64,000 nt of DNA from an uncultured Methanosarcinales archaeon (GTDB taxonomy: Archaea; Nanobdellota; Nanobdellia; Woesearchaeales; CAXGTL01). This document shows positions 5,656-61,554 of the stretch, piece by piece. The notes under the pieces were generated by a model. That model had not been told where the DNA came from, ran no database searches, and saw only the letters and a list, made by a program, of their open reading frames with translations. Numbering within the stretch: position 1 is the stretch's first letter; every line of letters begins with the position of its first letter. The stretch covers positions 8,122-72,121 of the forward strand of contig CAZHVK010000002.1 of assembly GCA_964535955.1 (NCBI GenBank). The letters run 5' to 3'. The translations under genes were made by a program, and so were the position numbers.

Positions 5656-8600
5656 ATGAAATACATTAACCAAATCAAAACAATAATAATAATTTTCTTA
5701 GTTTTAATTAGTTTATCAAATTTTATACATGCAGGGATCTATAGTCAAGATGTTAATAGCCCAACACCCATGGCTGCTTTACCTTTATCAGGAAAACTAG
5801 ACGTTAATCCAAACACAGGAGCAGCATCATATTCATACCCTGTAGAAGTACCTAAAGGGGTGAATGGTTTACAACCGATTGTAAGTATTAATTATAACAG
5901 CCATACTGCTAAATCGCCAACAGGAATAATAAGCAGTGCATGGACATTAACTGAAAACTATATTGAAAGAAATCTTGAAACAAAGAGAGGGTTTACAAGG
6001 TTTGACAATTTTGTTTTATCTCTTAATGGTCAACAACATGAATTAGTATATGATGAGTCAGATGATAGGTATCACACAAATATTGAAACATTCATTCATA
6101 TAAGAAAATTACAAGGTGGAGAAAATGAAAACAAAGAATATTGGGAAATCAAAACAAAAGATGGAACAACATACAGGTTTGGTTATAATGAAGATTCTGA
6201 ATTAATACCTTATAGCAACACAATGAGATGGAGTTTAGATCTTATAACAGATACACATGATAACAAGATATATTACTCATATTATGAATTAGTTAATGAA
6301 AGTATGCCATCATTTATTGAACAACCAATTTTTATACAACCAAAACAAAGGTTTGATGGAATACCTTATCCAAAAAGCATAGAATATAATAATGATAAAA
6401 CACATTCAATAGAATTTGTATACCAAAGAAAAACACATGGCAAAATACAATCATACCATAAAGGATGGAAAACAGAAATATCAAAACAATTAAAAGAAAT
6501 AAATATTAAAACAAATAATAAAATAATGGGCAAATACAGGATCCAGTATACACCATCATTAGGTAATTCAAATTATATCTCAGCAATAAATGATTTTGGA
6601 AAAATAGAAATACAACTAAATAAAGAAGAAATTAAAGCTTTAGATGAATTATTTGATAAATATCCTGAAAAGAAAATAAAAATTATTAATGATCAAGAAT
6701 ACAGAAAAAGATTATTAAATAAAAACCCAGAAATGAAAAATATTGTCCAACTACTAATGCAAATAAGAAAAGTAGATTTTAAATACAGAGTTGTTAAGTA
6801 TGAAGATGGAGAAGAAGAAGAAATTGAGGAAAATATTACAGCAGAAGAAGATAATATTTTTGAAATTATGCAAAATAAGGATTTTACGCAATTCATAGGT
6901 AAAAAAGAAAACACAATTAATGAAAAAAAATCAAATGCTGGATGGGAAAAATTAATATTTGTAGATAAAAATGGTAAAGATCTTGGAGCTCGTTTAGCAG
7001 ACATAAATGGTGATGGATATATTGATTATGTAAGAAAAGATAATACACTATTATTAATTGAAGAAAGTGGTTGGGTTGGAACAACTGGATGGAAATTGCC
7101 TAAAGAGGCAGTGTTTGTTGATAAAAATGGTAAAGACAAAGGAACAAGATTAATCGATCTAAATGGAGATGGTTTTGCAGACTTAGTAAAAAGTAGAATT
7201 TATGGTGAAGATAATTATGAGCAAAAAACATGGTTAAACACAGGAACAAGCTGGATAAAATCAGACAATTTTAAAGTACCAAAAGAAGCAGCATTTATAA
7301 GAAATTACAAAGATTATGGAGTTAGGCTTTCAGATGTTAATGCAGATGGCTTACCAGATATATTAATAAGCAGAGAACTACATAATAACAAATATTATTC
7401 TAAAACTTATATTAACAAAGGTTCTTGGTGGACAGAATCAAATAATTATAATGTTCCTAAAGCTGCTGCCTTTGTTGACTCTGAACACAGAGATAGAGGG
7501 GTTCGTTTAGGAGATATGAATGGTGATGGATTAACAGACATTGTAAGAGCAGGAGACTGTGACTCATCTTGGTGTAGAGGAGTATGGCTTAATACTCATG
7601 GAGGATTTAAAAAAATAGATTACTTAGAAGTACCAGATGAAATAAGTTTTTATGATGAAGAAGAGACATTCATAATAGTAGAAAATGAAAAAGGAAAAAA
7701 ATATCCTGTTAGTGCAGGAGACATACATAAAGATAATGGTATTAGATTAGTTGACATAAATGGCAATGGTTTTTCAGACATTATAAAAGGACAAGATTGC
7801 GACCATAAAAGATGTCAGGGTATTTGGTTTAACTCAGGAAGAACATGGGGTACAATTAAAGGAAATTACTTTTTAAAAGGAATTGTATTTGTCAACAAAG
7901 AAGGTGAAAACAAAGGAGCAAGATTAGCAGATTTTAGTGCTGATAATTATATTGACGCGGTTGTGGGAAGAGCATGTGATTATAAAGGATGCAAAGATCA
8001 CAGAGCATCAATGCCATATCCTATTTATCAATTAAAACTAATAAAAAATCAAAATGGTGGTACAACAACAATTGACTATGAAAGGTCTGTAAAATATGAT
8101 AATACAGGAGATGATTTAATAAATGATCTCCCAAACACTATGTGGGTTGTAAAATCAATTGAACATCACAATGGATTAATGAATGATAAAGAAGTAAAAA
8201 CAAAAACAGAATATTCTTACAAAGATGGATTTTATGATCATATAGAAAGAGAATTCAGAGGCTTTGGCTATGTAGAAACAACAAACTCTGATGGTAGCAA
8301 AGTTAAACACCATTACCACCAAGATAAAGCTAAAAAGGGGTTAGAATATAAAATAGAAATAACAGATAAAGATAACAAAACTCATACGACAACAGAAAAT
8401 ACATTTAGTTCTATAGAAAAAGATGATTATTTTATTGTTAAATTAGATTCAAGTAAAAACTATTTATATGATGGAACCATTGAAAACCCAATAATAACAC
8501 AAACAAATATTGAGTATGATGAATATAATAATATGATAAAAACTTCTTCATTAGGCGATGTTTCAAAACAAGGAGATGAGAAATATTCATATACTGAATA

Positions 8601-19364: not shown

Positions 19365-19414
19365 CACACCTTATCTTACCAGGGGCGGGTGGCCAGGAGG
19401 CAAGGATTGGTGGG
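19365..19414 (+). repeat. G-tract dispersed element, copy 1
   Basis: AGGGGCGGGTGGCCAGGAGGCAAGGATTGGTGGG preceded by a C-rich leader. Confidence 0.75.
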
Positions 19415-29434: not shown

Positions 29435-29480
29435 AGCTTTCCCAAAAAAATCTCAGATTTTTTGGGCCCAGAAAACTTTT
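29435..29480. repeat. REP-like palindrome/terminator (CCCAAAAAAATCTCAGATTTTTTGGG-CCC), inverted copy at ~61500
   Basis: Hairpin directly after the stop codon; near-identical reverse-complement copy at 61500-61542. Confidence 0.7.
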
Positions 29481-29562
29481 AGTTTTCTTGGTTTTTTCTT
29501 TATTTTTTTATATTTGTATTAATAGCAATCAATCTTAATCATAAATAGAATTCTAAAAAAGA

Positions 29563-29863: not shown

Positions 29864-30000
29864 TGGGCCTGCCGAGACTCTCATACACCAAAATTATTTT
29901 GATGATTTTGAACTCGGGACCGCCCGATCTCTGAATTGATTATTTATCAGTCGGGTGCTCTAATTGACCAGTATATACTTCCAGTCTAAGCCACAGGCCC
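29864..30000 (-). tRNA. tRNA-Ile(GAT) with three introns (19/20 29964-29980; 37/38 29929-29944; 59/60 29878-29906)
   Basis: Acceptor GGGCCTG/CAGGCCC; anticodon arm CCCGA-CTGATAA-TCGGG; each insert has BHB geometry (GACT/GGTC, CTGA/TCAG, TTCA/TGAG). Confidence 0.92.
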
Positions 30001-30196
30001 AATTGTTTTGTTGCGGGACTGAAGTGAGCGCAGCGAACGGAATGTCGCGCTATCCTGATCGAACTTGATAAAGTTCGCCATGACTCAGCCACAGGCCCAA
30101 TTGTTTTGTTGCGGGACTGAAGTGAGCGCAGCGAACGGAATGTCGCGCTATCCTGATCGAACTTGATAAAGTTCGCCATGACTCAGCCACAGGCCC
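30001..30196. repeat. Perfect 2 x 98-bp tandem repeat abutting the tRNA-Ile 5' end
   Basis: 30001-30098 = 30099-30196; each unit ends in AGCCACAGGCCC, identical to 29989-30000. Confidence 0.95.
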
Positions 30197-35624: not shown

Positions 35625-35666
35625 TAGTTTTGTTCACCTTTGTTTTTATTATAATTATTAATATTG

Positions 35667-35712
35667 TCCCTTACATCCTCAGGGGTGGGTGGTCGGGGGT
35701 TAGGAAGGTGGG
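35667..35712 (+). repeat. G-tract dispersed element, copy 2
   Basis: AGGGGTGGGTGGTCGGGGGTTAGGAAGGTGGG in a divergent intergenic region. Confidence 0.85.
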
Positions 35713-37153: not shown

Positions 37154-37202
37154 GCCTACCTACTGAACCTGGGTCGGGTGGCCGTGGGCATTACAAGGTG
37201 GG
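37154..37202 (+). repeat. G-tract dispersed element, copy 3
   Basis: GGGTCGGGTGGCCGTGGGCATTACAAGGTGGG between convergent genes. Confidence 0.8.
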
Positions 37203-37805: not shown

Positions 37806-37853
37806 GCCTGCTACCGAGCCAGGTGTGGGTGGTCGGGGGATGGAATTGGAGGG
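37806..37853 (+). repeat. G-tract dispersed element, copy 4
   Basis: AGGTGTGGGTGGTCGGGGGATGGAATTGGAGGG. Confidence 0.75.
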
Positions 37854-45501: not shown

Positions 45502-45522
45502 GATATTCACCTCTTATTTATT

Positions 45523-45569
45523 CCACCTACTAAACCAAGGGCGGGTGGCCGGGGGTTATGGAAGGTGGG
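45523..45569 (+). repeat. G-tract dispersed element, copy 6
   Basis: CCACCT...AGGGCGGGTGGCCGGGGGTTATGGAAGGTGGG. Confidence 0.85.
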
Positions 45570-50596: not shown

Positions 50597-50652
50597 ATCG
50601 CCTACCTAAAGAGACAGGGGCGGGTGGCCGGGGGCATCATGAGGATGGTGGG
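50597..50652 (+). repeat. G-tract dispersed element, copy 7
   Basis: AGGGGCGGGTGGCCGGGGGCATCATGAGGATGGTGGG. Confidence 0.85.
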
Positions 50653-60965: not shown

Positions 60966-61499
60966 ATGAAAGTAATCATAGTAACAGGCTCACCAGGAAC
61001 TGGTAAAACAAAACTAGCTAAGAAACTAGCAAAACAAAAACACTATGAATACATTAATGTATCTAAGCTAGTCAAAAATGGAAAACTTTATGATTATTAT
61101 GACAGGAAAAGAAGAACATATGTTGTTGATACTAAAAAACTTAACAAATTTCTTATTGAAATAATAAAAATGTATAAATGTAATAAGCATCCAGCCCTTA
61201 CTAAGTCAGGGGTGGGTGGCCGGGTGGCTGGAAGGTGGGCTAATAAAAAAGATAAAGTCAAAGGCATAATCATAGACTCTCACATGTCACATTACCTACC
61301 AAAGAAGTATGTTAATCTGTGCATTGTGACAAAATGCAACCTAAAACAACTAAAAACAAGACTTAAAAGAAGAAAATACAACAAAGCAAAGATCAGAGAA
61401 AACTTAGATTGTGAGATATTTGATGTATGTTTAACAGAAGCAAAAGAAAAAGACCATAAAATAAAAATAATTGATACAAGTAAAACCCAAAAAAGCTGA
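60966..61499 (+). CDS. Adenylate kinase AK6/Fap7 family with an in-frame G-tract insertion
   Basis: VTGSPGTGKT, IIDSH, RLKRRKY...KIRENLDCEI. Confidence 0.9.
   Translation: MKVIIVTGSPGTGKTKLAKKLAKQKHYEYINVSKLVKNGKLYDYYDRKRRTYVVDTKKLNKFLIEIIKMYKCNKHPALTKSGVGGRVAGRWANKKDKVKGIIIDSHMSHYLPKKYVNLCIVTKCNLKQLKTRLKRRKYNKAKIRENLDCEIFDVCLTEAKEKDHKIKIIDTSKTQKS
61191..61239 (+). repeat. G-tract dispersed element, copy 8 (intragenic)
   Basis: CCAGCC...AGGGGTGGGTGGCCGGGTGGCTGGAAGGTGGG. Confidence 0.85.
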
Positions 61500-61542
61500 A
61501 AGCTTTTTGGGCCCAAAAAATCTCTGATTTTTTTGGGAAAAG
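61500..61542. repeat. REP-like palindrome, inverted copy of 29435-29480
   Basis: GGGCCCAAAAAATCTCTGATTTTTTTGGGAAA between convergent stop codons. Confidence 0.7.
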
Positions 61543-61554
61543 AAAAAATAAAAA

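Follow-up and report, generated by a model that had tools for sequence, protein, structure and literature searches.

The stretch of DNA analysed here (64,000 nt, hereafter the window) corresponds to positions 8122–72121 of contig C2 in a 31-contig genome of 1.49 Mb and 29% GC (G000), estimated to be 100% complete, for which the nearest named relative is a marine MAG, "Candidatus Woesearchaeota archaeon". An open reading frame on the plus strand (60966–61499) encodes a 177-amino acid P-loop kinase of the AK6/Fap7 type. The ORF was matched by Pfam AAA_18 at 3e-24, by the human AK6/hCINAP structures 1rkb and 3iij at E ~2e-19 and by the archaeal Fap7 structure 4cvn at 9e-17, and Foldseek placed its AlphaFold2 model on 1rkb/3iij with a TM score of 0.75. 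With the P-loop GxxGxGK(T/S), the D-x-H Walker-B strand and the fold all present, the product is an AK6/Fap7 (hCINAP) protein. The invariant AK6 motifs are intact in G000, GSPGTGKT and IIDSH being kept in 32 of 32 Woesearchaeal orthologues, and the gene is single-copy (one tblastn match genome-wide).

On alignment with hCINAP, residues 56–97 of the query faced 12 residues of the target, leaving ~29 residues extra in the query. The site was then compared with that of four congeners (G001, G002, G003, which is also L001, and contig L027), and DNA and protein alignments delimited a 69-nt insert at 61190–61258 (+), encoding the 23 residues HPALTKSGVGGRVAGRWANKKDK. All four congeners lack it and read K(C/N)NK-(T/I)KG(I/V)IDSH; in G002 the empty site is TGT AATAAA ACA AAA GGT (C N K T K G). 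In the window, TGT AAT AAG is followed by a 54-nt element (CAT CCA GCC CTT ACT AAG TCA GGG GTG GGT GGC CGG GTG GCT GGA AGG TGG GCT) and then by AAT AAA AAA GAT AAA GTC AAA GGC. The element (61190–61243, +) is made up of a C-rich leader, CATCCAGCCCTTAC, a spacer, a G-tract core (61208–61241, +; AGGGGTGGGTGGCCGGGTGGCTGGAAGGTGGG), which is predicted to be G-quadruplex-prone and uses codons rare in G000, and a tail, GGAAGGTGGGCT. It lies between the direct repeats AATAAG (61184–61189, +) and AATAAA (61244–61249, +), the latter placed by alignment with G002 and L003; the left repeat is a candidate target duplication or microhomology, and, as the 6-nt repeat is A-rich, it may also have arisen by chance. 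The last nine nucleotides of the insert, AAAGATAAA (61250–61258, +; KDK), are found in the window species only and probably stem from a small loop indel that came later. A first-pass annotation of this DNA had described an extra AK6 segment ahead of the IIDSH strand and had proposed an orthologue alignment to define its ends; the alignment, with its empty sites in four congeners and 6-nt direct repeats, confirmed that the segment is real and fixed it at 61190–61258, although the KCNK residues included in it are ancestral and the end given, 61250, falls 8 nt short.

Two further inserted alleles were recovered. In L003, a congener with 82% protein identity, the site reads TGT AATAAG (54 nt) AATAAA ACA AAA GGT; the nine additional nucleotides of the window are missing, the insert is 60 nt long, and the difference from G002 is exactly the 54 nt plus a second AATAA(A/G) and nothing else. 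In L002, a conspecific strain with one mismatch to the window over ~800 flanking nt, positions 333–390 (window 61172–61241) contain the G-core with a 15-nt deletion and four substitutions, the frame being kept; these changes may be real, the G tract then being locally hypermutable, or they may stem from an error in sequencing or assembly at so G-rich a site. Across the insert, Logan contigs of runs X1, X2 and X4 show 0 differences from the window. Because these contigs agree, and L002 and L003 are inserted at the same place, the window insert is not an assembly artefact. The insert is 70% GC in a 29% GC genome, and its codons are rare in G000 (by the codon table, CGG accounts for 0.7% of Arg and GCC for 2% of Ala).

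The AlphaFold2 model of the protein has a mean pLDDT of 83, and residues 77–94 alone fall below 50; this predicted disordered stretch sits between helix 56–71 and strand 100–104. Among 32 Woesearchaeal orthologues the loop varies from 0 to ~40 residues and is mostly K/N-rich. An equally long loop in orthologues without the DNA motif had been named as evidence against an insertion: such loops, K/N-rich and up to ~40 residues, do occur in distant Woesearchaeal orthologues, but they point to a permissive site and do not show that the segment is home-grown. The loops of the nearest relatives are short. The longer AT-rich loop of L027 was considered as a decayed element but resembles a local duplication of 33 nt. 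In a separate Woesearchaeal lineage, contig L038 (positions 715–745; AK6 orthologue P0010, 58% identical) has a sense G-run, CCCTGGCACGGGCGGGGGGGCGGG, in the same loop, coding LARAGGRE. The family model described below does not recognise this run; the AK6 loop may be a place where G-rich DNA lands repeatedly.

Some other features of the window and genome were recorded. A second small repeat, which resembles a terminator, follows directly after the AK6 stop codon (61480–61545, +; ...CCCAAAAAAGCTGAAAGCTTTTTGGGCCCAAAAAATCTCTGATTTTTTTGGG). It contains a GGGCCC palindrome and a hairpin of A/T runs, and an inverted occurrence lies at 29438–29521 (−; 84 nt, 79%). Metagenome contigs branch at 61504–61539. 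At 29986–30181, in AT-rich DNA, a GC-rich unit of 98 nt is tandemly duplicated with 99% identity and may be related to an RNA gene. ARAGORN detected no tRNA in the 64-kb window, which fits with a tRNA-like gene elsewhere in the genome (C7:45740–45880) that carries AT-rich interruptions, one of them in the T-loop (GGGTTCGAAaacaacatcgaaAATCCCG).

The dispersed G-tract family

Copies resembling the AK6 element share a common architecture: a C-rich variable leader (CC.CTTAC), a spacer of ~7 nt, the block CAGGGG(T/C)GGGTGG(Y)(Y)GGGGG, a further 3–12 nt and GGA(W)GGTGGG. The G runs are invariant or nearly so and the bases between them vary; in some copies the leader is absent. Membership was assigned on a full-length match comprising leader, CAGGGGTGGGTGGYCGGGGG, spacer and GGAWGGTGGG. 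The AK6 copy was matched by the family model R1 along model positions 4–50 (37.7 bits, E = 2.9e-9), and the L003 AK6 copy scored E = 2.8e-9. The AK6 copy of the window shares 78% identity with the copy at 35668 and could be aligned with 24 others over its full length; its 33-nt G-core gave 0 matches in 100 shuffles. The earlier description of the segment as a full copy of an intergenic element is borne out by the model score and the end-to-end alignment.

Depending on the scan (repeat search, pattern scan, nhmmer or model), G000 holds about 28–37 copies. With model R1, 28 were counted in G000, 25, 12 and 4 in three congeneric genomes and two in G010, which belongs to another family of the order; the 26 remaining genomes of the order that were searched gave 0 copies, and viral contigs gave 0 matches to the core pattern. 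Metagenome contigs yielded 46 pattern matches, one of which (L093) was a full-length match to the model, the others being partial and corresponding to the G-rich part. Copy density is very uneven between contigs, and ~95% of copies are intergenic, in all arrangements relative to the flanking genes.

Intergenic copies within the window, all on the plus strand, lie at 19366–19414 (C2:27487–27535), 35665–35712 (C2:43786–43833), 37155–37202 (C2:45276–45323), 37807–37853 (C2:45928–45974), 45522–45569 and 50601–50652. The copy at 45522 has the top score in the genome and an orthologous copy in G002; five copy sites are common to these two genomes. The copy at 50601 probably has a counterpart at the corresponding position in each of the four species of the genus, and those in G001 and G003 are probably orthologous, judging from their matching offsets from the aligned flank and the same leader. 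As a separate observation, a subset of copies (such as C11:2785, C11:30473, C2:123292, C1:4088 and C21:7684) have a conserved module of 40–45 nt upstream, AAACAGAnnnnnACCCAAGAAnTTAGCC, and so form a longer variant of ~95 nt; this module is absent from the AK6 copy and from the 52-nt copy gained in G002 (see below).

Gains, possible losses and the history of the AK6 insert

A second instance of gain was found in G002, where position C3:108933 carries a 52-nt copy (TGTCC...GGTGGGAA) with the same ends as the AK6 copy. The equivalent sites in G000 and G001 are empty, reading CCTCTTTTTT followed directly by TTATAA, and the repeat flanking the gained copy is at most 2 nt. The copy at C2:110589 of G000 is missing in G002, which could be a gain or a loss.

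Coding sequences elsewhere in the genome, which the annotation had suggested scanning, yielded a second in-frame coding copy in a Nip7-like gene (C1:3524–4048, −), as well as two degenerate copies in the integrase ORF on C10. The Nip7-like gene carries the full G-core in antisense, where it codes DAHHPNPPTTHPSLP in the interdomain linker; its C-terminal PUA-like domain matches Pfam below threshold (22 bits against a cut-off of 27.6). The insert is present in all four congeners and the segment is absent in G010; the motif is recognisable in G003 but has degenerated into AT-rich sequence in both G001 and G002. At the level of genome comparison, the 52-nt gain in G002 and the antisense copy in the Nip7-like gene show that the G-tract element inserts.

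The annotation had offered a choice between a mobile element and one held in place by strong selection at the DNA level: the gain in G002 speaks for mobility, and selection on copies within genes is no more than suggested. Such copies can erode, as seen in the loss of G-core sequence in L002 and the decay of the Nip7-like copy.

The history of the AK6 insert holds an unexpected point. The inserts of G000 and L003 share a peculiarity, GGCCGGGTGGCTGG, that occurs in no other copy, and they therefore derive from one event. A tree of 2.2 kb of flanking sequence places G000 with G002 and L003 with G003; the split uniting G000 and L003 was rejected (36 informative sites versus 77 and 58; AU p = 6e-5), and extra events, i.e. 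precise losses or recombination, are therefore required. Either the insert is older and has been precisely lost at least twice, or alleles were moved between species by recombination. A deletion between the 6-nt repeats would restore AATAAA, and we infer that the AK6 insert could be precisely lost again by this route.

An enzyme that might mobilise the element was searched for in G000. No match was obtained for the Y1 transposase (PF01797), DDE_Tnp_1 (PF01609) or rve (PF00665), and the TnpB (PF07282) search gave one sub-threshold match and none above threshold. Matches to the reverse transcriptase family PF00078 were sub-threshold only; the RVT_1 match was discarded as a reverse transcriptase, as it lies in a gene that looks by eye like a Trm5/TYW2-type methyltransferase. 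No unit of 0.3–4 kb bounded by the ends of the element was found. The only recombinase seen beside elements is a tyrosine recombinase at C10:24619–25569 (−), with Phage_integrase at residues 135–297. The ORF has a 5′ extension of 134 residues, low in complexity and rich in P/K/Q/H, in which the two degenerate G-tract copies lie on the opposite strand.

Structure potential and orientation of the element

The element has the sequence features of a G-quadruplex, with at least four G runs and a G4Hunter score above threshold (1.64 for the AK6 core, 1.6–2.2 for the family). Of 41 sites in the genome that score >1.5, 24 overlap a family HMM match, and many of the other 17 look by eye like degenerate copies. 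In ViennaRNA predictions the quadruplex-aware fold of the AK6 core was better by 7 kcal/mol, and a G-quartet core was preferred in five of six copies tested.

Conventional base pairing gave no comparable signal. The Watson–Crick fold of the element was not significant on either strand (z = −1.08 on the plus and −0.30 on the minus strand), and neither leader–tail covariation (permutation test over 37 copies, p = 0.42) nor pairing of the leader with the first G-block (permutation test, p = 0.09) reached significance; a reading of the element as an RNA hairpin was dropped on these grounds. Rfam at gathering thresholds had no match in the window. The core resembles the 5′ strand of a variable-loop/T-stem, and a tRNA-fragment reading was also dropped, there being no T-loop or complementary strand.

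The orientation of the family is strikingly uniform. With model R1, 14 of the 15 contigs holding at least two copies were fully co-oriented, examples being C2 (11/11) and the G002 contigs C3 (14/14) and C6 (5/5); the AK6 copy and the other copies on C2 are all on the plus strand, whether the 11 R1 matches or the 13 of wider scans are counted. On C11 the polarity switches at 25–31 kb; a replication origin there was considered and rejected, as the region has no Orc1/Cdc6-like ORF.

A very strong skew between the strands at third codon positions, irrespective of the direction of the genes, runs through contigs C1–C16, the window included (GC3 term of magnitude 0.2–0.38, sign constant per contig). 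This replication-type skew is unusually clear for an archaeon and could be used for contig ordering and origin finding.

When copy orientation was set against this skew, the G strand of the element was on the C3-rich strand for 25 of 36 copies in G000, and for 21 of 24 well-preserved copies; the 11 copies that go against the rule are mostly degenerate. In G002 the same rule held on 6/6 contigs tested (25 copies). The AK6 copy follows it, and its orientation thus fits a replication-strand rule, not gene direction. If the leading strand is G-rich here, as is usual, the G tract would lie on the leading-strand template. We infer that insertion or retention of the element is coupled to replication.

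Origin of the AK6 segment and relation to known systems

Taken together, we regard it as likely, and hold with reasonable confidence, that a copy of a genus-confined repeat inserted into the AK6 gene, is read as a disordered loop and owes its orientation to the replication strand. A non-palindromic repeat of 52–54 nt, predicted to be quadruplex-prone, would have entered the single AK6/Fap7 gene at a loop on the protein surface, where helix 3 is joined to the Walker-B strand, adding 54 nt and the 6-nt direct repeat AATAA[G/A] for a total of 60 nt. Judged from the sequence, the element has no stop codon in three of its six frames, and 54 + 6 nt keeps the frame; AK6 would stay open because the insert is 60 nt in one of three stop-free frames. 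The segment would then be translated as a Gly/Arg-rich disordered loop, tolerated because loop length is free to vary in Woesearchaeota. The best reading of the family as a whole is that of a non-autonomous element inserting in the manner of the Rickettsia repeats discussed below, with its spread or survival dependent on the replication strand.

A bolder version, which we consider possible but rather unlikely, is that replication itself inserts and seamlessly excises the element, which would then be mobile without a transposase; quadruplex-stalled forks could, for instance, switch template at A-rich microhomologies. If true, it would explain the one-strand polarity of the G tract, the precise coming and going of the AK6 insert in disagreement with the species tree and the lack of an encoded mobilising enzyme. 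It would also represent a new mode of DNA spread and would keep supplying reduced archaeal genomes with new protein loops.

Of the competing explanations, the one that survives best, although we give it somewhat less credence still, is that the family is a selected, replication-polar chromosome element (for example a programmed quadruplex or protein-binding site); the AK6 copy would then be kept because the position requires the DNA motif as such, with the peptide as a by-product. The constancy of the G runs amid variable intervening bases, the near-perfect polarity, the persistence of orthologous intergenic copies in two to four species even at 29% GC and ~20% divergence, and the almost identical core in G010, from a different family of the order, are all consistent with such a role. 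Synonymous sites point the same way: between G000 and L003, 0 of 8 in the G-core have changed, compared with 30% in the rest of the gene, but the difference is non-significant (P ~0.06), and DNA-level selection on the in-gene AK6 copy is only suggested. Against it, four congeners thrive without the AK6 copy, L002 is missing 15 nt of the core, the Nip7-like copy has decayed in G001 and G002, and copy density is very uneven over contigs.

It is improbable that the inserted peptide has been co-opted, with its Gly/Arg-rich loop giving a ribosome-assembly factor an additional RNA contact of the RGG type. AK6/Fap7 does act on the small ribosomal subunit (PDB 4cvn/4cw7, Fap7–Rps14), GGRVAGR is conserved between G000 and L003, and the P0010 loop contains a different G-run coding ARAGGRE. 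The conservation could equally be at the DNA level or reflect recent descent, however; L002 has SGGAGRP instead, relatives do without the segment, and the model is disordered and makes no contacts.

The annotation had also noted that the reading frame is preserved within a conserved gene, and this stands: the insert is in frame in single-copy AK6, and the alleles of 69, 60 and 54 nt are all multiples of three and stop-free, as would be expected if the segment is translated and would be unnecessary if it were spliced out. The segment is therefore probably translated and not removed from the RNA; a search of RNA sequencing runs found the gene in none of them. That it is an intron-like element excised by the archaeal splicing endonuclease is very improbable; the absence of ARAGORN tRNA predictions in the 64 kb is in its favour, but besides the frame-keeping alleles, ~95% of copies are intergenic and in either orientation to genes, and the element shows no bulge-helix-bulge-like or significant fold (z = −1.08) and no leader–tail covariation (p = 0.42). 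Least credible of all is that nothing was inserted and a home-grown loop expansion or assembly chimera resembles the repeat by chance: loops do expand by slippage in relatives (e.g. the 33-nt AT-rich duplication of L027), but the model match (E = 3e-9), the lack of matches in shuffles, the 70% GC against 29% for the genome, the rare codons (CGG, 0.7% of Arg) and the agreement of independent contigs all contradict it.

Among known systems, a survey of Archaea (Brazda et al. 2020, PMC7565180) counted putative G-quadruplex motifs, with which the element shares its runs of G and its G4Hunter scores of 1.6–2.2; the survey deals in motif counts and describes no repeat family, polarity or coding insertions. 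A further literature text search found nothing relevant. The family is an undescribed type of element, confined, apart from the two copies in G010, to one genus of marine Woesearchaeota. With some 30 copies, it offers a testbed in archaea for how G-quadruplex DNA relates to the direction of replication and to genome instability.

In being small and non-autonomous the element resembles a MITE, and its ends hint at short, imperfect inverted repeats (CCACTT...AGGTGG), as one site does at a 6-bp duplication. The complementarity of the ends is imperfect, however, extending over 5–7 bp in many copies and lacking in others, the leader is absent in some copies, the duplication is inconsistent (6 bp at AK6 versus at most 2 bp at G002:108933), and no autonomous partner with matching ends, DDE transposase or rve was found. 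REP/BIME–RAYT and IS200/IS605 systems likewise comprise short intergenic repeats with an orientation tied to the replication strand, and they can insert without a target duplication of fixed length and be lost seamlessly. They require a hairpin and a Y1 HUH transposase, whereas no hairpin, PF01797 or TnpB was found in G000.

Rickettsia palindromic elements (RPEs) are bacterial, palindromic and 100–150 bp in length. They were reportedly described by Ogata et al. in 2000. The likeness drawn in the first-pass annotation between the AK6 segment and RPE coding insertions holds for the mode of action but not for the sequence, as the element is non-palindromic and of a different family. Both are short dispersed repeats found between genes and in frame within conserved genes, and neither has a known associated transposase. 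In RPEs the added peptide lies on the protein surface and the host gene remains functional; at AK6 the insert is in frame and in a predicted disordered loop, and its peptide would likewise lie on the surface of a functional protein. The G-tract element differs in being 52–54 nt long, G-rich on one strand and free of hairpin signal, and in being archaeal (DPANN), strongly strand-polarised and unrelated in sequence. The RPE is therefore its closest analogue, and the element is not a member of that group. AK6 provides a dated, allele-resolved case of a non-coding repeat probably turning into a protein loop, with full, shortened and empty forms in relatives. RPE-style "selfish DNA inside essential genes" would accordingly not be confined to Rickettsia, occurring also in DPANN archaea, in an element very different in kind: non-palindromic, quadruplex-prone and replication-polarised.
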